DNA of 22,887 nucleotides from a virus, in the UHGV virus genome UHGV-0306720; one strand, given 5' to 3'. Below the pieces are notes generated by a model. The model ran no database searches, had not been told where the DNA came from, and saw only the letters and a list, made by a program, of their open reading frames with translations. Each line of letters opens with the position of its first letter. The stretch's first letter is position 1. The translations under genes and the position numbers were made by a program. Positions 5,094 to 22,887 of the stretch are shown piece after piece.

Positions 5094-5482
5094 GCCGGAT
5101 AGGCTCCGTGTGGTAACTGAAAATGCGGTCCGTCTTTCAGGGTCTTCCAGTCGCCGCCCCATTCCACCGGAATATTCAGTTCCCGGCTGGCCTGTCTGAA
5201 TGCGGCTGCGATTTTTTCGTACAGCGGCCATTCCCATGACACCTGGCTGCCGATATAAGCCACAACATCCACGGCATGTCCCGTAAGGTGGCGGCTGTTC
5301 ATGGTCTGGCTCTTACCTGTGGCCACAAGTTGCTTCTGGCGGTAACGGCTGCGCAACCCTTCGGTGATACCAAAATCCACTTCCGAAATTTCCAGTGCCC
5401 GTCGGGTCACTTTCACCAGATCAGGATTTACGCCCTGCAAATTCTTTTCGCTCCGGCTGCTGAATTTAAATGTGTTGCTCAT
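5090..5482 (-). CDS. Endolysin, peptidase M15-type (zinc peptidase, L-Ala-D-Glu endopeptidase-like)
   Basis: SRHLTGHAVDV and DGPHFQL motifs (His/Asp zinc ligands of the M15 family); sits between holin and spanins. Confidence 0.75.
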   Translation of the reverse strand: MSNTFKFSSRSEKNLQGVNPDLVKVTRRALEISEVDFGITEGLRSRYRQKQLVATGKSQTMNSRHLTGHAVDVVAYIGSQVSWEWPLYEKIAAAFRQASRELNIPVEWGGDWKTLKDGPHFQLPHGAYPA

Positions 5483-7447: not shown

Positions 7448-8500
7448 TTAGCTGTCGGCGAACTTCAGGCCAGTGACCATCGCGCACTTGCCATAGTCTT
7501 CAACGACATAAGCGTCATTGATGGACTGGTAGGTGGCGATGCGGTTGTATTCCGGTTCGTCTTTCATCAGACGACGCATTGAACCTTTCTGCCAGTAAAT
7601 CGACAGGTTGTTGAACGAGGTGATCAGCATCGTTGCATCCGGGAAGAACGGCGCAAGGAACACGCCCAGCCCGCCAATGGTGCGCGATGACAGGATGAGC
7701 TGCCCGGCAAGTAATTCCGCATTGGGATTCTGGCCGCTGATGCTGTTCAGCACGGGCAGACGCAGTGAGTTAAACAGGTTGCGCCCCATAATCACCACGA
7801 GGTCGTCAGCTTCCTTGTGCCATTCATCCAGCAGGGATGAGCGTGCGTCCTGTACCAGTGCATCAGCGTTCGCATACTTACCCGCGTGCGCCACGGTGTT
7901 GTCCATGTTGCGTGAGGTCAACGTCACGTCATTCATAACGCGCTCGCTGGCGTTGGTTCTGATGTGCTTCAGCCACCCCACGTTAACGTCCTGAAGCAGC
8001 TTGTTGGTGCTGAAGTTGGACTCATCCGCGTGAGACGTGCCGTTGAAACCGATCATGATGCGGTCAAGTGCCACCTGCCGGGCAATCTGTGCGCTGATGC
8101 GGGACTGAAAATCAGGGTGTGCCGCCCAGGCATCAAGCTGCGGATATGAAATAAACGTGTCGTAGTTCACCTGTTCGCACTGGTATTTGCGGTTTTTCAG
8201 ATCAACCACGTTATTCGGGTTACGGCGTTTTGTGCCGTCATAACTGGTATTCGTGCGTGCAATTGGCCCGGTGGTGTCCAGGAGGATTTTTTCGCCTTTC
8301 TGGTCGGTCACGCCGATCACGTTAATTCTTTTTGTAAATTCGGTGCTTTCCTTTGAGGCGTTTTCAAAACGCTGCTGCACCGAGGGTTCCACGGTAAATC
8401 GCGATACCAGTGCGGAAACCGGAATATTATTAAGCGACGCCTGCTGCGCCATATAGCAACCCAGCTTGTTGCGGGTAATATCTGACATCACCAGATTCAT
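7448..8500 (-). CDS. N: Major capsid protein gpN-like
   Basis: 350 aa; FTVEPSV and other segments match P2 gpN as recalled; strong SD AAGGAG before the ATG. Confidence 0.9.
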   Translation of the reverse strand: MNLVMSDITRNKLGCYMAQQASLNNIPVSALVSRFTVEPSVQQRFENASKESTEFTKRINVIGVTDQKGEKILLDTTGPIARTNTSYDGTKRRNPNNVVDLKNRKYQCEQVNYDTFISYPQLDAWAAHPDFQSRISAQIARQVALDRIMIGFNGTSHADESNFSTNKLLQDVNVGWLKHIRTNASERVMNDVTLTSRNMDNTVAHAGKYANADALVQDARSSLLDEWHKEADDLVVIMGRNLFNSLRLPVLNSISGQNPNAELLAGQLILSSRTIGGLGVFLAPFFPDATMLITSFNNLSIYWQKGSMRRLMKDEPEYNRIATYQSINDAYVVEDYGKCAMVTGLKFADS

Positions 8501-8523
8501 AAAAAATTTGCTCCTTTGTCTTA

Positions 8524-9360
8524 TCAGAAGTCAGCCAGCTGGTCGGAGGCTGCACCTGTTGCGGTGAACCGGTTCTGCGGATCGCCGTCCTGCGTGCGCA
8601 GTTTTTCCTTCAGTGCTGCCAGCTCTGTGGTCAGTGACGTAATTTTCTGGCGGTCCTGCTGATGGCGGGTTTCCAGCACATTAAAACGGTCGATAATGTC
8701 GGCCTGTGACGTTGCGACGCCTTCCACCGCTTCCTGAATACGGGAAAAACTGGCGTCATCCGCTTTGCGGCCACGGCCAATAATCCCCATTACGCGGTTA
8801 AACCACTGGGTGCCTTCTTCCTGGCGTTGTTCTGCCATTTCGATGATTTCAGACTCGATGGCTTCGGAGATAAGCGGTGCTTCACCCTGGACACTGTTGA
8901 ACGTCATTACCGCCTGACGTTGCTGTGCCGTAAATTTCAGGCGCTCAGTGCCCAGGCTTGCCGGGGTGTCGGTCATCGCCAGCCCGACCAGATAGGCGCG
9001 CCCGTTAACGGAGAACTGCGGGTGCAGTTCGATACTGGAATAGATTTTCTTGCCGTCCGCGACAAGCTGCTTCATGCGCTCGGTCGGTTCGATTTCTGCA
9101 TACAGCGCAGTACGTCCGGCCAGCGGACCTTCCGTAATGTCTTCTGTACTCAGTGCGGTGACATCGCCCATTGCGGAAAATTCGCTTGACGGGCATGGCG
9201 AGAGATAGTGCTCAACGTTCACGCGGGCAGCGTAAACATCCGGGTTGAAGTTCTCGGCGGCTTCACGCAGATGCACCGGACTGATTTCACGGCCATCAAC
9301 AGTTGATCCGGAGACAGCCACGCGAAACTTTTTGCGGGATGTCTTTTTTTCATTAGCCAT
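8524..9360 (-). CDS. O: Capsid scaffolding protein gpO-like
   Basis: 278 aa, acidic with a coiled-coil C-terminal part; first gene of the leftward late operon, divergent from P. Confidence 0.8.
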   Translation of the reverse strand: MANEKKTSRKKFRVAVSGSTVDGREISPVHLREAAENFNPDVYAARVNVEHYLSPCPSSEFSAMGDVTALSTEDITEGPLAGRTALYAEIEPTERMKQLVADGKKIYSSIELHPQFSVNGRAYLVGLAMTDTPASLGTERLKFTAQQRQAVMTFNSVQGEAPLISEAIESEIIEMAEQRQEEGTQWFNRVMGIIGRGRKADDASFSRIQEAVEGVATSQADIIDRFNVLETRHQQDRQKITSLTTELAALKEKLRTQDGDPQNRFTATGAASDQLADF

Positions 9361-9515
9361 AGTTTTTTGCCCCTCTGACTGGTTCTTCAGTCATGATGGC
9401 AAAGCGTAACAGGCTGATACAAAGGGCTTTTGTTGTAAGAAAACGGCCAGAACAGGGGGTTAAGGAGAACGGTTTCGCGCGCGGGTAATCTTCCTGTAAT
9501 TACTCAGGGGGAGCA
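9361..9515. promoter_or_regulatory. Divergent late-promoter region between O and P
   Basis: 155-bp intergenic region between divergently transcribed capsid and terminase operons, as in P2. Exact promoter and activator sites not resolved. Confidence 0.5.
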
Positions 9516-11267
9516 ATGATTCAGGACGCTTTTGTGCGCCAGCGTGCGCGGCAACTTTACTGGCAGGGGTATCCGCCCGCAGAAATATCACGTCTGATGG
9601 GAATAAACCCGAACACGATTTATGCGTGGAAAAAACGCGACCAGTGGGATGAAACACCACCCGTGCAGCGTGTTACGCAGTCCATCGATGCGCGCCTCAT
9701 CCAGCTTACTGAAAAACAGAATAAAACAGGCGGTGACTTTAAGGAAATAGACCTGCTGACCCGGCAGCTTAAAAAGCTGCATGATGGCCAGCCGGATGTG
9801 ATGACCGCAGGAAAGAAAGGCCGGGCGAAAAAACTCAAAAATCATTTCACGCCGGAACAGATTGCCGCACTGCGGGAAAAAATCATCAGCAGGCTGGAGT
9901 GGCATCAGCGGGGCTGGTTTGACTCCCTGACCCTTTGCAGGGAAGCCGGGATACGTAACAGGATGATCCTGAAATCCCGACAGATTGGGGCGACCTGGTA
10001 TTTTGCACAGGAAGCTCTGCTGATGGCGCTGCGTGACGATGTGGCGCAACCTTACCAGCGTAACCAGATTTTTTTGTCTGCGTCGCGTCGTCAGGCGTTC
10101 CAGTTTAAAAGCATTATTCAGAAGGCCGCGGCTGAAGTTGATGTGGAGCTGAAAGGGGGCGATAAAATCATCCTCTCCAACGGCGCAGAGCTGCATTTTC
10201 TCGGCACTTCTGCTGCGTCGGCACAGTCCTATACGGGCAATTTTTATTTTGATGAATTTTTCTGGGTCAGTCGCTTTGCTGAACTGCGCAAGGTGGCTGG
10301 CGCTATGGCAACCCTCAGCGGACTGCGGCGCACCTACTTCTCCACGCCATCCACCGAAACGCACGAGGCATACGCCTACTGGAACGGCGACCGCTGGAAC
10401 GAGAAAAAGGCCTCGCATAAACGCCAGCGTTTTTCTGTGGACTGGAAAACGCTGCATAACGGGCTTATCTGCCCTGACCGGACGTGGCGGCAAATTGTCA
10501 CGCTGGAAGATGTGGTTAATCACGGCTGGAAACACACCGATATCGACGAAATTCGTGATGAAAACACCGAAGACGAGTTCCTCAATCTCTATATGTGTGA
10601 GTTTGTCCGCGAAGGGGAATCGGCATTTAACCTGAATATCCTGATTGGCTGCGGTGTTGACGGATACGACGACTGGAAAGACTGGAAACCTTTTGCTCCC
10701 CGCCCGATGGGGAATCGTCCGGTATGGATTGGGTATGACGCAAACGGCAGTAGTGGCAACGGCGACAGCGGCGCTGTGTCCGTGGTGGTTCCTCCGGCTG
10801 TTCCTGGTGGCCGTTTTCGAACGGTGGAGACGCGACGCGTTCAGGGGCTGGAGTTTGAAGAACAGGCCAGAGTCATTGAAGAGTTCACGTATCGCTACAA
10901 CGTGGAACACATCGGCATTGATGTGACGGGCGGGAACGGGGAGGCTGTTTATCAGATAGTGAAGCGGTTTTTCCCTGCTGCTATTCCGTACACCTTCACG
11001 CTGTCATCAAAACGGTCGCTGGTACTGAAAATGCTGCAAATAATGCGTGCCGGGCGGTGGGAATACGATCGCGCCGAACGCGAGCTGGTCGCGGCCTTTA
11101 ACGCCGTGCGTAAGGTGAAAACACCGGGCGGCTTTATCACTTACGAAACGGACCGAGCGAGGGGGATCAGCCACGGCGACCTTGCGTGGGCAACCATGCT
11201 TGCTGTCATTAACGAACCGATTGGCGGCGAAGGAGAAAACGAGCGTTTCACGGTTATGGAGTTCTGA
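9516..11267 (+). CDS. P: Terminase large (ATPase) subunit gpP-like
   Basis: 583 aa; N-terminal HTH-like segment (YPPAEISRLMGINPNTIYAWKKR); SD GGGGGAG before the ATG; TGATG overlap with Q. Confidence 0.9.
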   Translation: MIQDAFVRQRARQLYWQGYPPAEISRLMGINPNTIYAWKKRDQWDETPPVQRVTQSIDARLIQLTEKQNKTGGDFKEIDLLTRQLKKLHDGQPDVMTAGKKGRAKKLKNHFTPEQIAALREKIISRLEWHQRGWFDSLTLCREAGIRNRMILKSRQIGATWYFAQEALLMALRDDVAQPYQRNQIFLSASRRQAFQFKSIIQKAAAEVDVELKGGDKIILSNGAELHFLGTSAASAQSYTGNFYFDEFFWVSRFAELRKVAGAMATLSGLRRTYFSTPSTETHEAYAYWNGDRWNEKKASHKRQRFSVDWKTLHNGLICPDRTWRQIVTLEDVVNHGWKHTDIDEIRDENTEDEFLNLYMCEFVREGESAFNLNILIGCGVDGYDDWKDWKPFAPRPMGNRPVWIGYDANGSSGNGDSGAVSVVVPPAVPGGRFRTVETRRVQGLEFEEQARVIEEFTYRYNVEHIGIDVTGGNGEAVYQIVKRFFPAAIPYTFTLSSKRSLVLKMLQIMRAGRWEYDRAERELVAAFNAVRKVKTPGGFITYETDRARGISHGDLAWATMLAVINEPIGGEGENERFTVMEF

Positions 11268-12313
11268 TGAGCAGAAAAAATAAAAAAGTGCGCATGAGTT
11301 CACGCATTGATCTCGCTGATGCGCTCAGGAAAGAATCATCGCTCAGTGCATTCACATTTGATGGTCCTTATCGCCTGACCGGGCATGACCTGCTGGACAA
11401 TATGTACTGTGCTGATAACGGGCGGTGGTATGAAACCCCGGTGGACTGGTACGGTCTGGCAAGAGCAGCCCGGCAAACGTCCTGGCATCAGTCTGCGCTT
11501 TACTTTAAGCGCAATGTATTACTCGGTTGCTACATCCCGCACCCGCTGCTTTCCCGGCAGGATTTCTCGGCGCTGGCGCTGGACTGGTTTGTGTTCGGTA
11601 ACGCATTCCTTGAGCTTCGAAGCAATATGCTCGGCGAACCGCTTAAATTACGGCACGCACTGGCGAAATACATGCGACGCGGAAGCGATCTTGAATCATG
11701 GTGGTATGTGCAGGATGGCAAGGACGCGTTCCAGTTTCGCCCTGGCAAAGTGTGCCACCTGATGAATCCGGACATTAACCAGGAAATTTATGGCATGCCG
11801 GAATATCTCGGCGCATTACTCTCGGCCAGCCTGTCTCATTCGGCGGACATGTTCAGAAAACTGTATTACGACAATGGATCCCACGCCGGGTGCATCATCT
11901 ACATCGGTGCAGCGCAGGTAAACCGCGAAAGCATGGACTCCCTGAAAGAAACGTTACAGGGTGCGCGTGGTGGTGGCGCGTTTAAAAACGTGCTCATCCA
12001 TGCGCCCAACGGGGGCAAAGAGGGGGTGCAAATTTTGCCGTTCCAGCAGATCACCGCAAAGGATGAGTTCATGAATGTTAAGGCGGCATCCCGTGATGAT
12101 GTGCTGGCTGCGCACCGCGTTCCGCCGCAACTGATGGGGGCGATGCCGGGCGAAAAAAGTGCGTTTGGTGATGTGGAGAAGGCCGCGCGGGTTTACGCAA
12201 TTAACGAGCTGATGCCCGTCATGGAGGCCATGAAGCACATCAATGACTGGCTTGGCGAAGAGGTGATCCGCTTTAACCCTTACGCACTGTTAGACACCCA
12301 GCCCACATCCTGA
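11267..12313 (+). CDS. Q: Portal protein gpQ-like
   Basis: 348 aa, close to the P2 Q length, coupled to P, last gene before the cos region. Confidence 0.85.
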   Translation: MSRKNKKVRMSSRIDLADALRKESSLSAFTFDGPYRLTGHDLLDNMYCADNGRWYETPVDWYGLARAARQTSWHQSALYFKRNVLLGCYIPHPLLSRQDFSALALDWFVFGNAFLELRSNMLGEPLKLRHALAKYMRRGSDLESWWYVQDGKDAFQFRPGKVCHLMNPDINQEIYGMPEYLGALLSASLSHSADMFRKLYYDNGSHAGCIIYIGAAQVNRESMDSLKETLQGARGGGAFKNVLIHAPNGGKEGVQILPFQQITAKDEFMNVKAASRDDVLAAHRVPPQLMGAMPGEKSAFGDVEKAARVYAINELMPVMEAMKHINDWLGEEVIRFNPYALLDTQPTS

Positions 12314-13433: not shown

Positions 13434-13745
13434 TTACTCAGGAAATAACGCCCGGATATTCCCAGCCATCTGGCTGGTTATCTTAGCCACTGGTGCAGAC
13501 TGTGCTTCAAACTTTTTTGAGCTGATTTGTGTCACAGGTAACATCTCATCATCAGCCCATGCGGCCAGTCGGTAAGCCTCTGCCGGATTCGTCTTCAGAA
13601 GTGCCAGCCCGGCCAGAAAAGCCACGCGTTGGCCGCTTTTGCGGGCTTCTGGTGTAAGGCTGTCCAGCCAAGCGCATGCTTCTCCTTCGTTCTTGACGGC
13701 AGCTGGCTTCAGATAGAAACTTATTCTTCTGGTTGGTGTCGTCAT
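13434..13745 (-). CDS. parR: ParR/StbB-like partition adaptor (103 aa)
   Basis: RRISFYLKPAAVKNEGEACAWLDSLTPEARKSGQRVAFLAGLALL resembles the plasmid R1 ParR N-terminal region as recalled. Begins 4 nt after the parM-like stop with SD AAGGAG. Confidence 0.7.
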   Translation of the reverse strand: MTTPTRRISFYLKPAAVKNEGEACAWLDSLTPEARKSGQRVAFLAGLALLKTNPAEAYRLAAWADDEMLPVTQISSKKFEAQSAPVAKITSQMAGNIRALFPE

Positions 13746-13749
13746 TGGT

Positions 13750-14709
13750 TTACTCCTTGTTCATTGCGTACAGCCCATTAACCAGAGCAAATTGTGGCCC
13801 CCCGTCCGCGATGAAAGTCGCATTAACTCCGCAGGCTTCGCGGATAGCGGGTGCCACAATCTCCGCCCCGCCACCGACAACCATCACCCGCCCGTAACCC
13901 GAAAAAACCGCCAGCGCGCGGATCACGCGTTGTTTCAGTGTTTCTTCCTTTTCACGAATAACCGCCATCAGGCTGGCGTAATGCGCGTCATTGTGGATGT
14001 GCTGGCGCAGCCAGGCTTCATCATGGCGATGTTCGATAATGGTATTGGCGATGTGGTGACTGGTGCGCATACCGTTAGTGGCCATCACCGACAGTACGGC
14101 ATCGGCCATAAGAGAAACGCCTACGTGTGGATCGCAAAACACCTGGCTGATACCTGCCAGTTGCCCCTGAACCTTTGCCACATCCAGCGTGGTTCCGCCC
14201 AAATCCACAATCAACAGGGATTCAAACGGACTCATGTCAGCCAGTGCCTTAAAGCCAGCCGGAATGGATTCAGGCATAACCCGTACGTTACGGATAGTGA
14301 ATGCTTCGCCGTTCTGGTACTCCACCGGGCGCATGACGTTCGCTTTTTTGCGGTTGATGTTGGCCATGTCCGGCTGTGCGTTTGTATCGAAATACTCGCT
14401 CAGTGGCAGGGTGACAACCACATCCACTTCCTGTGGTGTGATGCCTGATTTGACCAGCGCGTGATGAATGGCAATTACATTCACATCGCTGTACTGGTAT
14501 TGCGTGTCGGTCGTCTGGACAAAGCGATCGCTGACCGGATCAAAACCATAGCGCACGCCATCAAGCATGTAGTTCGCGGGCTGCGTGCCACCGAATGGCG
14601 CAGACCATTCCGACTTGAAGCTGTTCGGGCTGATGGCGTTGCGGCGTTCGCCGTTCTCAGTCCATGCCAGCTTGATGTTGGTGGAGCCGTCGTCGATACA
14701 AATTTTCAT
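13750..14709 (-). CDS. parM: Actin-like segregation ATPase, ParM/StbA family (319 aa)
   Basis: MKICIDDGSTNIKLAW, YSDVNVIAIHHAL, VMPESIPAG, LIVDLGGTTLDV and VMVVGGGAEI are the actin-fold motifs and resemble plasmid R1 ParM/StbA along the whole length, as recalled. Confidence 0.85.
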   Translation of the reverse strand: MKICIDDGSTNIKLAWTENGERRNAISPNSFKSEWSAPFGGTQPANYMLDGVRYGFDPVSDRFVQTTDTQYQYSDVNVIAIHHALVKSGITPQEVDVVVTLPLSEYFDTNAQPDMANINRKKANVMRPVEYQNGEAFTIRNVRVMPESIPAGFKALADMSPFESLLIVDLGGTTLDVAKVQGQLAGISQVFCDPHVGVSLMADAVLSVMATNGMRTSHHIANTIIEHRHDEAWLRQHIHNDAHYASLMAVIREKEETLKQRVIRALAVFSGYGRVMVVGGGAEIVAPAIREACGVNATFIADGGPQFALVNGLYAMNKE

Positions 14710-14744: not shown

Positions 14745-14852
14745 CAGGATTTTTAAATCCCGCTTTTGCCTGTTTTGTGCGCGCTTCATATATCGCGGCG
14801 CGTTTTTTGCTCATTTACGGGATTTGTGAGTCCCGTTTCTGTCTGTTTTTTG
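14745..14852. repeat. Two ~35-bp imperfect direct repeats (27/35 identical), each with an internal dyad, 73 bp apart
   Basis: CAGGATTTTTAAATCCCGCTTTTGCCTGTTTTGTG (14745-14779) versus CGGGATTTGTGAGTCCCGTTTCTGTCTGTTTTTTG (14818-14852). The first lies between the A stop and the parM start; the second lies within the last codons of A. Confidence 0.6.
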
Positions 14853-17608
14853 TTTCCACTGGTCAGGCCACCCCGCAGCAGGTCTGCTTTGCGGCTGGCG
14901 CGTTCAGTGGTTTCACTGATTCTCTGTGCGTGCTCTGCGTCGCGGATGGCGCGCAGCATGTCAGAAAGCACGGTAACGGGTGTTTTCATGGTGTTCTGGT
15001 CCTGCTGAAGTGTGGATGCCAGGCGTGCGGCGGCTTCAGGGTCTGATGCCCCCAGCTGTGCCAGATAGCTGGCGACCGGGTTATGGCGGATCTCCGTGCT
15101 GCTTACGCCATGATTACGGCTCAGGCGCTGCCAGAGCTGCGTGATTCGGCTGTCCGGGCGGGTATCCGGTTTGCGTACAATTTCAAATCCCTGCGGTGCA
15201 ATGATGCTGCCGTCAACGTACAGACTGCCGCCCCGTAACAGGTGCTGCATCTGTTGTTCACCGATATGCAGGCCGAGAGATTCAGCAGACTCCCGCCATT
15301 CTTTAGCGAGTAATTCGTGGTTATCAGGCAAAGGCCGCTGCTGTTTGCGGCTCTGTGTCCAGCTCTGCATTTCATCACTGCTGTTTTTTGCCTGTTTGTC
15401 ACGAAGCGAACGCATCAGCGCCCGGCGTTCGTGCCGTTTCAGTGAGCGCATCCATTCGTTCACGTCAACGCCGTCAGGAAGCTGCGGCCACGGTGCTGGC
15501 CGTTCTTCCGGCTGTTCTGTCCCGTTGTTGTCCGTTTCCTGTACACGGGGACAGTTATTGCCACGAGTCCAAGGGGCGGCAGGGCCGCCCTGAAGGTCAA
15601 AACCATTTTCGCGGGCGCTGTCTTCCGCTTCCGGTTTGCGTCTTACCAGCTTCCAGTTATCCGGATGCGTGCACACACGGGAGGATTCCCCGATGAGTGG
15701 CGACCAGATCCCGTAAATCTGTACGCTCTGTTCGCCGTAATCGTTCAGCTCATCTGCGAGGTCGTAGGCGGTGCGAATCAGGTAGTCTTTGCGTGGAACA
15801 AGTACGCCGCCCTGTTTCTCTATGTAGGTGGCAAAACATCCGGCATCAGCGGCAGCAAGAACCGCATCCATTGCGTCATCCTTCAGCCGTTGCGGGCCTT
15901 CGGGGTTGCGTGCCATCTGGCTGGCAAGGCGACGCAGTTCACGCCACACCTGACGGGAGGGGATACCAAAGAACTGGAACTGGCGGACCCGGTGAAGGCG
16001 CGCCCAGCCGATGGCGCGTTCCACGCTCTCGGCCATTGATTTTCCGGTTTCGTGGTCAACGCGTGGTTTGCCCGTTTTCGGGTCGATGCCATCCACGGCG
16101 CGGCTGTCCAGGTTCTTTCCGATGTAGGTGGCGATGTAGCTGGTTGGCGTGCCTTTTGAGCCGTCGACATACTCCACCTTAAAGCGCGGAGTAATATCAT
16201 TGCCCAGCTCGTGGCGGTCTTCCTGAATGGCAATATCGCGGGTGATGGCCACGATGCTGTCGATTTCTTCCGGATGAGCAAAGACCATCATATGCCAGTG
16301 CACGGTGCCGTCATGGTGAGGCTCCACCGTGCGGATGCCATACCAGCGCAGGCCGTCGCGGTTCAGTTTCTTGCGGACCGCCGCAAAAAACGTGTTAACC
16401 AGGTAATCGCTGGAGTCGCGCATGGTGGCCCCGTTCCATTTGGGGTTCGGATGACCGTTCTCCGTTGTTGCGTGGTATTTTGACGGGCAGGTGACAGTCA
16501 GAAACACCGCTCTGTCGCCACGGGCTTCGGCCAGAAGTTCCAGTCCCTTCATGGTGGCCATCATTTCTGCCTTACGGTGAACCGGGTTACTTACTCCCGC
16601 GTAATACACTGTCTCGAGATCAATCGTGAAGCCGTCTTCGTTTTCCAGTTCGAAGCTCTTCAGGAAGTCGCGGGTTTTCTCGCGCTGTGCGCGAAACTCG
16701 CTTAACGCGTCCTGGCTCAGATAGGGTGATGTTTTTCTGGAAACCAGACAGGCGGCGCGGAGTTGTTCTTCTCTCCACTCGCAACGTAACAGCCACAGTT
16801 TGCGTTTCCACCATTCCGCACAGGTCAGGCGAAGGATTGCGCCCGGCAGCAGCTCCGTGTCCGGTTCGTTCCTCCGGTCTTTGTCTGTTGTCAGTGCGTC
16901 ATAATGTGGAGGCATGGCGTGCAGGTGTAACGCCATGCGGGCCAGCATCTGATACGCCTTCAGCGTTACATCCATGGTCAGTTCGCCATCAGTCGCGCCA
17001 AAGCCATCGCAGAGTTTTTCGAAGGTGCTGCTGAACATCGCCGCCGTCATGGTGGCCAGCGTCTGTATCTGGTGCTTGTTGAGCTGCGGCAGGTAAAGCA
17101 AATCATCCAGGCGTTCGCGTCCGGCAAGGGAGCGATAACCCGGTGTCAGCCAGCGGTGGTCGGTGCGGTCCAGACGTTCGAATATTTTGCGCAGGGTTCC
17201 GCGCGCGTAGCGTTCAGCCTGCCAGCTCTTTTTGCCTTTCCGGCGATCGACTTCCTGTTTTTTGCGCAGGAAGGAGAGGTGGCGAATAAGCGGATCGCGC
17301 AGATAGGACGGCAGCAGGCGCAGCGAGGCCATGGCTTCATCCACCGCGCCGCGTGCCTGTTTTCTGGCGTCTCCTGCCAGTGTGATGGTTTTGTCCTGTT
17401 TTTCCTGTGCATCCAGGCTTTTATTAATCAGGTTGCCCAGCGGCGTGGCGGAGAACGCCGCATCAGCCATTTCCTGGCGGCGCTCGTTCTCTGCCCGGTA
17501 GGCATCCAGCCAGGAGGAAAGCGCAGATTCAGGAACGGGGATCCCCGTTCCTTCACGTCCCACTGCGTGGCGCGGTTGTTGCCAGTCCCTGATGTACTCT
17601 GCCGTCAT
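14786..17608 (-). CDS. A: Replication initiation endonuclease gpA-like (HUH rolling-circle initiator), 940 aa
   Basis: HUH motif in VHWHMMVFAHPEE; large last gene of the early operon as in P2; ATG confirmed. Confidence 0.8.
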   Translation of the reverse strand: MTAEYIRDWQQPRHAVGREGTGIPVPESALSSWLDAYRAENERRQEMADAAFSATPLGNLINKSLDAQEKQDKTITLAGDARKQARGAVDEAMASLRLLPSYLRDPLIRHLSFLRKKQEVDRRKGKKSWQAERYARGTLRKIFERLDRTDHRWLTPGYRSLAGRERLDDLLYLPQLNKHQIQTLATMTAAMFSSTFEKLCDGFGATDGELTMDVTLKAYQMLARMALHLHAMPPHYDALTTDKDRRNEPDTELLPGAILRLTCAEWWKRKLWLLRCEWREEQLRAACLVSRKTSPYLSQDALSEFRAQREKTRDFLKSFELENEDGFTIDLETVYYAGVSNPVHRKAEMMATMKGLELLAEARGDRAVFLTVTCPSKYHATTENGHPNPKWNGATMRDSSDYLVNTFFAAVRKKLNRDGLRWYGIRTVEPHHDGTVHWHMMVFAHPEEIDSIVAITRDIAIQEDRHELGNDITPRFKVEYVDGSKGTPTSYIATYIGKNLDSRAVDGIDPKTGKPRVDHETGKSMAESVERAIGWARLHRVRQFQFFGIPSRQVWRELRRLASQMARNPEGPQRLKDDAMDAVLAAADAGCFATYIEKQGGVLVPRKDYLIRTAYDLADELNDYGEQSVQIYGIWSPLIGESSRVCTHPDNWKLVRRKPEAEDSARENGFDLQGGPAAPWTRGNNCPRVQETDNNGTEQPEERPAPWPQLPDGVDVNEWMRSLKRHERRALMRSLRDKQAKNSSDEMQSWTQSRKQQRPLPDNHELLAKEWRESAESLGLHIGEQQMQHLLRGGSLYVDGSIIAPQGFEIVRKPDTRPDSRITQLWQRLSRNHGVSSTEIRHNPVASYLAQLGASDPEAAARLASTLQQDQNTMKTPVTVLSDMLRAIRDAEHAQRISETTERASRKADLLRGGLTSGNKKQTETGLTNPVNEQKTRRDI

Positions 17609-21222: not shown

Positions 21223-21317
21223 GTGATAATCTCCCTGTTTGGGGTATTTCTTGCGACGGATGCCCCAAATCAAACTCATTTGTATAAACATTAATACAGA
21301 CGTTGGAGAATTGCAAC
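21223..21317. promoter_or_regulatory. Lysis-lysogeny switch region (divergent early and repressor promoters, operators)
   Basis: Intergenic region between divergent cox and C; imperfect inverted repeat TTTGGGGTAT...ATGCCCCAAA. Confidence 0.5.
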
Positions 21318-21620
21318 ATGCGTATGACTATTGGAGAGCGCATAAAAATCATGCGTGAAAGCGAGAGACTTACTAGCCTCCCGGATACAGCAAAAATGCT
21401 TGGTTTAAACCGTGATGCTCTGTGGAGATATGAAAGCGGTAAAACTATCCCTAATGCTGAAGTAATTGAGCAAATACTAAACAACCCCAGATTTGAGAAA
21501 TATGCGTTGTGGTTTATGACTGGGAAAATTGCGCCTGAATCCGGGCAGATAGCTCCGGCTCTCGCACACTATGGGCAAGAGCCAACGGACTTACCCCCAT
21601 CCGAAAGGAAAATTGGCTAA
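21318..21620 (+). CDS. C: Immunity repressor C (P2 C-like), about 100 aa
   Basis: KYALWFMTGKIAPESGQIAPALAHYGQE closely matches the P2 C repressor C-terminus as recalled. ORF-track start is a TTG at 21303; ATG at 21318 or 21324 is more likely. Confidence 0.8.
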   Translation: MRMTIGERIKIMRESERLTSLPDTAKMLGLNRDALWRYESGKTIPNAEVIEQILNNPRFEKYALWFMTGKIAPESGQIAPALAHYGQEPTDLPPSERKIG

Positions 21621-21686: not shown

Positions 21687-22676
21687 ATGGCAATTAAAGC
21701 GCTCGATGGTGGACGGTATAAAGTGGATGTTAGACCGCGTGGCCGAAGTGGACGTCGGATTCAGCGGATTTTTAAGAAAAAGGCAGATGCAGTGGCCTTT
21801 GAGCGTTATGTTCTCAGCCACATGCACGATAAGGAATGGCTTGAAAAGCCAACAGAGCAACGTCATCTCTCAGATCTGCTTCCGTTATGGTGGGAATTGG
21901 GTGGACGCAATAAGCCATATGCTAACGGCGTTCTAACCAGGTTGAAAAAAATCATCAAAGAAATGAATGATCCAAGGGTTAGCCAGATTAATGCTCGTTT
22001 CATGGCCGCTTATCGAAGCTCCCGTTTATCCTTGGGAGTAAAAGAGTCTACTGTTCGGCGTGATGAGTCGGATCTCGGAGGAATGTTTACACTCCTGGCA
22101 AATGCCGGGGAATTTCACGGAGAAAATCCGCTCCGCGCCCTCCCCTCTTTGAAACGAAAATCACCCGAAATGACGTATCTCACCACGGAAGAAATCGCCA
22201 AATTACTGGATGCAGTAAGCGGTGATGCCCGGCGGATTACGCTACTTTGTCTCAGTACTGGGGCGAGATGGGGAGAAGCGAAAAATCTGCGCGCGGAACA
22301 CATCATCAATAATCGCGTGACGTTTAACAAAACTAAAAACGGAAAAGTTCGAATTATTCCTGTCTCTGATGAAGTTGTTAGTGAGATCAAAACAAAGAAA
22401 TCCGGCCTTTTGTTTGACGTCAATTATGAGGAATATCGCAAGGTGCTTCGCAGTGTTAAGCCAGACCTACCAAAAGGACAGGCTGTACATGTTCTACGCC
22501 ATACCTTTGCTGCTCACTTTATGATTAATGGAGGAAATATACTTACGCTCCAGCGAATTATGGGGCACGCTACGATCCAGCAAACTATGACCTATGCGCA
22601 CCTCGCTCCTGATTTCCTCCAGGATGCAATTTCACTTAATCCGTTAAAAGGAGGCATCCACATTTCATCCACATAA
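21687..22676 (+). CDS. int: Tyrosine integrase (P2 Int-like); ATG 21687 preferred, ORF-track start 21654
   Basis: C-terminal catalytic signature HVLRHTFAAHFMINGGNILTLQRIMGHATIQQTMTYAHLAP (R, H-x-x-R, Y). MAIKALDGGRYKVDVRPRG resembles the P2 Int N-terminus. SD GGAGGG before 21687. Confidence 0.9.
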   Translation: MAIKALDGGRYKVDVRPRGRSGRRIQRIFKKKADAVAFERYVLSHMHDKEWLEKPTEQRHLSDLLPLWWELGGRNKPYANGVLTRLKKIIKEMNDPRVSQINARFMAAYRSSRLSLGVKESTVRRDESDLGGMFTLLANAGEFHGENPLRALPSLKRKSPEMTYLTTEEIAKLLDAVSGDARRITLLCLSTGARWGEAKNLRAEHIINNRVTFNKTKNGKVRIIPVSDEVVSEIKTKKSGLLFDVNYEEYRKVLRSVKPDLPKGQAVHVLRHTFAAHFMINGGNILTLQRIMGHATIQQTMTYAHLAPDFLQDAISLNPLKGGIHISST

Positions 22677-22790
22677 GTGGGTTTTATAGGGTAATCAGTA
22701 ACCCCCACCAATAACAAAACCCACTGAAAACAAAGGGAAAACATTGAATTCAGTGGGTTTTACAACGCACCTTCGGGCGCGTTTTTTGTT
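22677..22790. other. Prophage-host junction (attR expected here); core not defined
   Basis: Direct repeat AGTGGGTTTTA at 22676-22686 and 22752-22762; inverted repeat AAACCCACTGAA (22717-22728) / TTCAGTGGGTTT (22749-22760); host-type terminator-like hairpin plus T6 at about 22764-22788. Confidence 0.4.
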
Positions 22791-22843
22791 GACAGCGTGA
22801 AAACAGTACGGGTACTGTACTAAAGTCACTTAAGGAAACAAAC
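22789..22843 (+). promoter_or_regulatory. Host pheA promoter/leader region
   Basis: TTGACA at 22789-22794 and a downstream TACTGTA-like -10, followed by the pheL start codon. Confidence 0.6.
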
Positions 22844-22887
22844 ATGAAACACACACCGTTTTTCTTCGCATTCTTTTTTACCTTCCC
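22844..22887 (+). CDS. pheL: pheA leader peptide pheL (partial, window ends before the stop)
   Basis: ATG AAA CAC ACA CCG TTT TTC TTC GCA TTC TTT TTT ACC TTC = MKHTPFFFAFFFTF, the Phe-rich attenuator leader peptide of enterobacterial pheA. Confidence 0.75.
   Translation, partial: MKHTPFFFAFFFTF

Follow-up and report, generated by a model that had tools for sequence, protein, structure and literature searches.

A P2-type prophage junction in the predicted intrinsic terminator of raiA, upstream of pheL, and a repeated motif that may provide Cox boxes in its P' arm

Where does a prophage end when its integrase gene lies just upstream of the host pheL leader gene, and what is the role of the repeats that occupy the gap between the two? 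Phages have long been known to use attachment sites that fall on elements of dyad symmetry, terminators and tRNA genes among them, and the short interval between int and pheL holds both a terminator-like hairpin and several copies of a repeated motif. The DNA analysed here (the window, 22,887 nucleotides of UHGV virus genome UHGV-0306720) covers the right-hand 22.9 kb of a P2-family prophage. Late genes of the prophage (portal, terminase, scaffold and capsid, positions 7448-12313) share 97.6-98.7% nucleotide identity with P88-like phages (Xuanwuvirus), and the gene order at its early end, cox, C and int, is that of P2 (Table 1). The same prophage is present in E. coli strain E2855, where it is about 37.8 kb long and lies between raiA and pheL. 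It is well supported that positions 22656-22789 form the int-proximal junction (B-O-P' type) of this P88-like, P2-family prophage, integrated in the intrinsic terminator of raiA. Taken jointly, the whole account, comprising an Int-mediated junction, its core and the interpretation of the repeats as Cox sites, appears probable to us.

Table 1. Features of the early region, the int-proximal junction and the adjoining host DNA, in window coordinates.
Feature	Position	Strand	Remarks
cox-like gene, putative excisionase / recombination directionality factor, 108 aa	20896..21222	-	divergent from repressor gene
C-type immunity repressor gene	21318..21620	+	Pfam HTH_31/HTH_3; RefSeq; upstream of int, same strand
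int, P2-type tyrosine integrase gene, 329 aa	21687..22676	+	TAA stop at 22674-22676
Predicted P' arm-type Int sites, ATCCACA tttc ATCCACA	22656..22673	+	11-bp spacing; within the last six int codons
Repeat copy 0, AGTGGGTTTTA	22676..22686	+	first A doubles as the final base of the int stop
Box A, AACCCCCACC	22700..22709	+	degenerate copy of the 'GAnACCCCA' box of relatives
Repeat copy B, AAAACCCACTGAA	22716..22728	+	left arm of the 13-bp inverted repeat; inverted motif copy
Repeat copy C, TTCAGTGGGTTTT	22749..22761	+	right arm of the inverted repeat; 1 nt short of the core
27-bp common core, CAACGCACCTTCGGGCGCGTTTTTTGT, predicted raiA intrinsic terminator	22763..22789	+	shared with the empty site (L003) and the raiA-side junction (L002 4961-4987)
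CCTTC, segment within which strand exchange probably occurs	22770..22774		terminator loop; overlap region here or including CCTTC
pheL-pheA promoter region	22789..22818	+	TTGACA 22789-22794, TACTGT 22813-22818; same in empty sites
pheL leader peptide gene, MKHTPFFFAFFFTF...	22844..22887	+	RefSeq annotation of identical sequence; runs off the window end

The integrase matches the Pfam families Int_N (5.2e-23) and Phage_integrase (4.1e-17). It shares 53.8% identity with P2 Int (over 328 aa) and 64.4% with the Int of Klebsiella phage 3LV2017. A nucleotide search of a phage collection with the int region returned no close phage, the sole match being the host pheL part in a Salmonella record; the relatives of int were found by a protein search after this result. 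The integration and immunity module is mosaic relative to the rest of the prophage, with late genes almost identical to those of P88-like phages and an Int that is only 56.6% identical at the protein level. The 108-aa product of the gene divergent from the repressor scored 24.6 bits against Pfam Phage_Cox (E = 2.2e-5), under the cutoff of 27.5, and an NCBIfam search with this protein gave no match. Its top match in the PDB was P2 Cox (4LHF, E = 1.7e-4, residues 12-88 against 8-84), and a near-identical allele is named 'Cox family DNA-binding protein' in RefSeq. These weak but consistent matches, together with the syntenic position of the gene and its divergence from the repressor, suggest that it encodes a Cox/Apl-type directionality factor.

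We compared the window with the empty site of strain G749 and with the raiA-side junction of an integrated prophage. The three have the 27-bp core in common, with the consensus CAACGC(A/G)CCTTCGGGCGCGTTTTTTGT and a single A/G difference: core position 7 (22769) reads A in the int-side junction, whereas attB and the raiA-side junction have G. Unoccupied E. coli genomes align with the window only from 22763 onward. The pheL side of the interval is matched in all complete E. coli genomes (5426/5426), whereas a match that extends across int is found in only 125, and about 2.3% of these genomes therefore carry the junction. Some genomes keep only a remnant, consisting of the last 141 nt of int, the spacer and the core. 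The circular, attP form of the junction, GGGTTTTACAACGCACCTTCGGGCGCGTTTTTTGTAAAGCTAAC, was not present among the fetched loci.

The first-pass annotation had placed the prophage end between the int stop and a pheL leader lying 168 bp beyond it, and had named comparison with an empty site as the way to challenge this. The comparison puts the boundary inside that interval, and the distance is also correct as an inclusive count, since 167 nt (22677-22843) separate the int stop from the pheL ATG at 22844. The annotation further held that defining the core required the other prophage end, and it was indeed the raiA-side junction, together with the empty site, that defined it here. Its picture of an end immediately upstream of the pheA promoter and a host-type terminator needs one amendment: a T-run hairpin and TTGACA do follow the int spacer, but the terminator is the recombination site itself. 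The name attR has to be replaced, as the int-proximal junction is attL in P2 usage.

The core is the predicted rho-independent terminator of raiA. It begins 24 nt past the raiA stop on the same strand and has an 8-bp stem, a TTCG loop and a T-run (AACGCGCC-TTCG-GGCGCGTT followed by TTTTGT), and a terminator scan picks up the raiA terminator in the empty site. The left part of the terminator at the int-side junction is phage-derived, as marked by the A at 22769, and the right part is host-derived. Integration leaves raiA with a perfect terminator at the far junction, identical in predicted stability to the host copy (-14.4 kcal/mol), while the copy gained by int is a hybrid whose stem contains a single A.C mismatch (-9.0 kcal/mol). 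Since the phage brings its own copy of the terminator, neither the termination of raiA nor the pheL-pheA promoter should be damaged.

On the host side, the last T of the core (22789) is also the first T of the hexamer TTGACA, and the host sequence is unaltered from this -35 hexamer downstream after integration. A promoter scan did not flag the TTGACA/TACTGT pair, which has a weak -10 element and which we take to be the pheA promoter. The Rfam Phe_leader model gave a partial match at 22843-22887 that covers only the first 45 of its 125 positions (27.7 bits against a gathering score of 55), being truncated at its 3' side by the window end, and the identical sequence is annotated as pheL or Phe leader in RefSeq genomes, where it is followed by pheA. 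Regulation of pheA is predicted to be unaffected by the prophage. Nothing on raiA/yfiA-pheL as a prophage site was found in the literature searched, and the table of P2-like attachment sites in PMC3448106 does not list the raiA terminator next to pheL. The attB of this phage group is the predicted raiA terminator, a site apparently unnamed in the searched literature whose architecture is of the known P2 type.

The position of strand exchange is narrowed by the single base difference in the core and by two secondary integrants. The A at core position 7 occurs only on the int side, which places the exchange to the right of 22769. In the first secondary integrant, the same prophage lies inside a tail-fibre gene of the 129-kb plasmid pCREC455-3, where the int-side junction reads ...CAACGCACCTTC/tggagctg and the other junction ...gtcaatgct/CCTTCGGGCGCGTTTTTTGTaaagc (slashes mark the switch points). 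Two other plasmids match the reconstructed empty site, which has one CCTTC, at 100% identity over 193 nt; in pCREC455-3 only CCTTC is duplicated. The second is IMG/VR contig L068, with ...CAACGCACCTTC/TGAGCGTTTG at the int-side junction; the empty target, found in a plasmid (L088) of a family of about 48 kb, is TAGCGCCCCTTCTGAGCGTTTG, also given as TAGCGCCCCTTCTGAGCG. Phage sequence including the A at position 7 runs in both integrants up to the C at 22774, and target sequence begins at the next base. Because two independent secondary insertions switch after CCTTC, strand exchange appears to take place in or around this segment, at the centre of the terminator dyad. This placement is well supported and bounds the cleavage positions; the usual overlap of 6-8 bp must reach 1-3 bases past CCTTC on at least one side. 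Natural evidence of site-specific integration activity comes from the two secondary sites, where the insertions are clean, the phage ends precise and the 5-bp CCTTC shared.

The end of int in the window (22656-22676, ATCCACAtttcATCCACATAA) contains two ATCCACA sites. At the same place before the stop codon P2 has, in int-sense orientation, TGTCCACAcagTGTCCACAgTAG, which is annotated as the Int P' arm, and the ATCCACA sites match the P2-type arm-site consensus tgTGGaCa (PMC3448106). They are invariant in 11 relatives. The far arm carries a matching pair, ATCCACAaactGTCCACA (ATCCACA/GTCCACA; L002 5029-5046), again with 11-bp spacing; beyond this pair, as in P2, the neighbouring phage gene has a terminator. 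Arm sites and core are 89 bp apart in the P' arm (87 bp in P2) and 41 bp apart in the P arm (35 bp in P2). An IHF consensus scan found AAACAATTTGTTA (L002 4993-5005), a consensus match at 12/13 positions to WATCAANNNNTTR, between the P-arm sites and the core; in the P' spacer the same scan gave only a 2-mismatch match. By homology with the footprinted P2 system, the N-terminal domain of Int would bind the two ATCCACA sites in the int 3' end and the matching far-arm pair, and an IHF-like site would lie between the far-arm sites and the core.

Within the 86 bp between the int stop and the core, the motif AGTGGGTTTT occurs three times, twice in direct and once in inverted orientation. The first-pass annotation had reported an 11-bp direct repeat with one copy over the int stop, and both copies of AGTGGGTTTTA are where it saw them, at 22676-22686 and 22752-22762. 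It had also reported a 12-bp inverted repeat, which is real; the arms are in fact 13 bp and perfect (AAAACCCACTGAA/TTCAGTGGGTTTT), with 16/18 positions matching over longer arms, and the annotation overlooked that the inverted copy (AAAACCCACT, 22716-22725) makes a third copy of the same motif. Three exact copies of the 10-mer are present in 22.9 kb, where about 0.04 are expected from length alone; shuffled sequences gave a mean of 1.19 motif hits with one mismatch allowed, and beyond the three copies the window holds a single 1-mismatch match, at 5372 inside a late gene. The repeats are not a chance pattern. Among the sampled E. coli copies, the spacer is invariant except for the length of the C-run at 22702-22706 (C5 to C7), and this invariance holds in a lineage with a swapped operator and repressor N-terminus. 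The sole substitution seen in a box is an A to G change in copy B, from a metagenome contig (L032). Most IMG/VR contigs stop at the int stop, and thus gave no spacer sequence.

To place the spacer among its relatives, 11 relatives of Int (59-70% identity) were aligned over the whole segment from the int end to the core. The aligned elements are the arm sites, a GAnACCCCA box, an AAC..C..TGA box, a variable loop, an inverted box and a terminator-type core. The core terminator is paired in 96.6% of cells, with covariation, whereas RNAalifold did not recover the B:C helix across the 11 relatives and a fixed register pairs 46.8% of cells. When each sequence was folded separately, a significant hairpin was found at the same place in 8/11 relatives and in P2, in spite of differing sequences; L065, L073 and L006 retain box-like sequence and have lost the stable hairpin. 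The stretch that corresponds to copy 0 is coding in the relatives, where it specifies the last six Int residues, and int stops earlier in the phage studied here. An exact third copy thus arose in what is coding sequence in the relatives, which suggests selection for the motif. Overall, the members of this Int clade seem to integrate at intrinsic terminators, and an inverted repeat seems to be retained in their P' spacers.

We propose that the repeats are boxes for Cox or an accessory protein in the P' arm, a reading drawn from their position and one that we would put at nearly even. Together with the degenerate CCCCC box, the three AGTGGGTTTT copies take up the 86-89 bp from the P' arm sites to the core. 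A Cox-type factor, possibly with a host bending protein, would bind them and bend the P' arm, and this bending would promote excision and inhibit integration. The repeats occupy the position of the Cox-protected interval of P2, a 74-bp region in the P2 RefSeq record, and P2 Cox protects at least 70 bp of attP with six cox-boxes (TTAAAG/CNCA) that face two ways (PMC3936717). The cox-box-like TGAAAGCCC is the basis of an inverted repeat of 15 bp in the P2 spacer as well. The spacer boxes of the Klebsiella and Raoultella phages (L007, L008 and L005) match the box ACCCCATGA of those phages' own cox-C switch region, and the ACCCCA-type box of relatives, ATACCCCA, also occurs in the cox-C switch region. 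The inverted boxes of the Klebsiella and Raoultella phages thus behave as cox-boxes should, and these matches, together with the boxes kept where the hairpin is lost, favour boxes that bind a protein.

Several observations fit the proposed Cox boxes less well. The cox-C switch region of this phage, a second expected target of Cox, lacks the exact AGTGGGTTTT motif and has TTTGGGGTAT and ATGCCCCAAA instead. The sharing of k-mers between spacer and switch region is not above chance (p = 0.66) in a test of low power, since the P2 positive control also fails; in the relatives this low-powered test is positive or borderline. The copies are spaced 40 and 36 bp apart, compared with the 10-11 bp period of the P2 cox-boxes. 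The weak homology of the putative Cox protein, under the Pfam cutoff, counts against Cox boxes, and the 13-bp complementarity and the hairpins in 8/11 relatives fit an RNA structure equally well. Two groups were considered as a natural experiment in which the same int and attachment site would be paired with a different Cox. The group of about 93% identity proved to be an immunity swap, of the operator plus the C N-terminus, with Cox nearly the same, and in P88-type phages both Cox and the int module are unrelated; neither was informative.

The RNA alternative places the repeats in the 3' UTR of the int mRNA, as a 13-bp stem-loop (22716-22761) stacked on the terminator hairpin, which would make the int transcript more stable, lead to its processing, or back up the weakened hybrid terminator against read-through into pheL, with copy 0 as an alternative partner of copy B. 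We consider it unlikely as an explanation of the repeats. The minimum-free-energy fold of 22670-22795 reaches -39.3 kcal/mol (z = -4.7) and the B:C hairpin -20.3 kcal/mol (z = -5.7), with none of 200 shuffles as stable (0/200). The recurrence of a significant hairpin in relatives and P2 despite differing sequences, the G.U pair that is kept by the A to G substitution in copy B, and the weaker terminator on the int side (-9.0 against -14.4 kcal/mol) point the same way. However, RNAalifold misses the helix, which pairs in under half of the cells where the core terminator pairs in nearly all, and L065, L073 and L006 have box-like sequence with no stable hairpin. A plain hairpin leaves the third, direct copy unexplained, loops of ~20 nt are atypical for terminators, and the 'compensatory' pattern is one that symmetric protein sites give as well. 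An Rfam scan of the spacer found no family above threshold; a hit to SpF19 scored 29 bits, below its gathering score of 60, and is a terminator-like artefact. Cox boxes and an int-mRNA hairpin are not mutually exclusive.

An elaboration of the RNA structure, which we regard as improbable, is a translation-sensed 3' switch between two mutually exclusive hairpins, 0:B (-14.6 kcal/mol) or B:C (-20.3 kcal/mol). If this were true, a ribosome terminating at copy 0, on the int stop, would free copy B to pair with copy C, and translation of int would be coupled to the 3' structure beside the weakened hybrid terminator, at the border of prophage and host, and through it to int mRNA stability or to read-through into pheL-pheA.

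The first-pass annotation had taken the AGTGGGTTTTA repeats for possible Int arm-type sites or the attachment core, and this now seems highly improbable. The repeats do adjoin int, one copy abuts the host boundary, and the box AAAACCCAC agrees with the core half-sites ACAACGCAC and AAAACGCGC at 7/9 positions. However, chance matches at 7/10 positions are frequent in this region, the sequence that attB has in common with both junctions begins at 22763, past the last repeat, and neither attB nor the other arm contains the repeat. Conserved P2-type arm sites exist elsewhere, in both arms: the core is at 22763-22789 and the P' arm sites are the two ATCCACA at 22656-22673. Equally remote is a functionless relic, an older terminator-type core or former int terminator left behind after a change of target, for although the B:C repeat is terminator-like (A-run, stem, T-run), the cores of the Int clade are all terminators whose AAAACCCCG-type stems resemble the box AAAACCCAC, and the module is mosaic (late genes 97.6-98.7%, Int 56.6% identity), the spacer is invariant except for C-run length across 125 E. 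coli genomes including immunity-swap lineages, the new exact third copy argues for selection, and the P2 equivalent is functional Cox-binding DNA.

The junction map has practical uses. It gives base-level coordinates for prophage annotation in the 125 of 5426 complete E. coli genomes that carry the junction, some of them as a remnant only, and it adds a further P2-type integrase and attachment-site pair as a possible genetic tool. The apparent targeting of terminators and the P'-spacer inverted repeat across the Int clade make a tidy generalisation that will not surprise specialists.

Comparison with known systems indicates which parts of the junction are shared and which have diverged. The P88-type phages (Xuanwuvirus, Peduoviridae) share the late genes, at 97.6-98.7% nucleotide identity, and carry, downstream of int, both an inverted repeat and a sequence resembling a terminator. 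P88 differs in its Int (56.6% identical) and in an unrelated Cox of 173 aa, and integrates next to dmsA rather than at raiA-pheL. The sib and tI elements of lambda offer an analogy, in that a hairpin and a terminator downstream of int, near the attachment site, could control the fate of the int mRNA. Lambda sib lies beyond attP and is split from int by integration, whereas the hairpin described here is linked to int in both the attP and the prophage form, and thus cannot discriminate between the two states. The likeness to sib is one of analogy only.

The closest integrases, at 59-70% identity, are those of 3LV2017 and enterobacterial prophages (L005-L010, L065 and L072-L074). These have a homologous segment with arm sites, an ACCCCA box, an inverted AAC..TGA pair and a terminator-type core, which is annotated as attL in 3LV2017. 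They differ from the junction described here in using other terminators and host loci, in an int that is about 6 codons longer and runs through the stretch that is copy 0 in the window, and in boxes of the CCCCATGA or TTGATA type.

P2 attP (NC_001895, 24293-24496) is alike in the order of its elements: arm sites, an IHF site (a consensus match in the present phage), a 27-bp core, a spacer of ~87 bp and arm sites that lie over the int 3' end. The arm consensus TGTGGA, read on the complementary strand, the placement of int after C and divergent from cox, and an inverted repeat in the P' spacer are also common to both. The two differ in their proteins, with Int just 53.8% identical and Cox distant (E about 1e-4), and in their host target and core sequence, which is P2 locI in one case and the raiA terminator in the other. 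The AGTGGGTTTT repeats of the spacer do not resemble the P2 cox-box TTAAAG/CNCA, and the P2 sites are footprinted, the present ones predicted from sequence. A shared Cox-box consensus apart, the junction by its architecture matches or is consistent with a P2-type Int/IHF/Cox attachment junction.

The comparison loci carrying related integrases share a feature downstream of int. Every relative examined there (L005–L010, L065, L072–L077, L085 and L091) has a hairpin followed by a T-run, resembling an intrinsic terminator, at the position of the core, and these hairpins often have a CTTCGG-type loop. P88-type phages adjoining dmsA also carry terminator-like sequence at this position. Terminators seem to act as attB for the whole Int clade; of the relatives examined, 3LV2017 alone carries an att annotation that bears this out.

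The 3′ end of int differs between the window and the relatives. In an alignment of the segments from the int end to the core (A4, columns 25–45; window 22674–22700), int is about six codons shorter in the window than in 10 of 10 aligned relatives. Its stop codon lies immediately 3′ of the second arm-type site, and the first AGTGGGTTTTA copy in the window occupies a stretch that was formerly int coding sequence.

In some E. coli genomes the prophage at the raiA-pheL site is reduced to a remnant (L089, NZ_CP066032.1; L090, NZ_CP077479.1), comprising the last 141 nt of int, the intact spacer and the core, beside pheL. In these genomes the C-run within box A of the spacer has one extra base. The related locus from Symbiopectobacterium purcellii (L006) is probably a decayed prophage. 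The ORF next to its int looks, by its sequence, like a putative transposase, no cox-like ORF was seen in this locus, and its spacer holds two direct CAGTGATTAA copies in place of the clean inverted repeat.

Features of the prophage and of the comparison loci
Feature	Location	Strand	Remarks
Secondary site 1	plasmid pCREC455-3, NZ_CP183151.1 (L013–L015)		tail-fibre gene
Secondary site 2	L068 (occupied contig) vs L088 (empty plasmid, NZ_CP062206.1)		gene of ~48 kb plasmid family
ORF of 254 aa	L006 2234–2998		directly upstream of int, expected repressor position
ParM + ParR-like partition pair	window 13437–14709	minus	family domain matches
GPA-type replication protein, 940 aa	window 14789–17608		adjoins the partition pair

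The same prophage has also integrated at two secondary sites, both within other mobile elements. The first target, pCREC455-3, is a 129-kb plasmid with phage tail and baseplate genes, and here the prophage sits inside a probable phage-plasmid. The plasmid family hit by the second insertion carries ParB and methyltransferase genes. Both targets contain CCTTCTG and match the core in part.

At the raiA-pheL site itself, about 51 of 125 E. coli prophages carry a different immunity cassette. In these prophages the operator region has been exchanged together with the repressor's N-terminal HTH half (window 21245–21560 against 795–1110 in L011/L012, two such prophage loci). The recombination breakpoint falls within the repressor gene. 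Cox and the C-terminal half of C are nearly identical, as are int and the att spacer.

Finally, the prophage encodes a plasmid-type partition pair. ParM matches StbA_N (1.8e-82) and has the ParM C-terminal domain, while its partner is a Plasmid_stab_B/ParR-like protein (9.8e-24). Integrating P2-type phages do not usually carry such a segregation system, and its presence in this P2-like prophage makes one ask whether there is an episomal phase.
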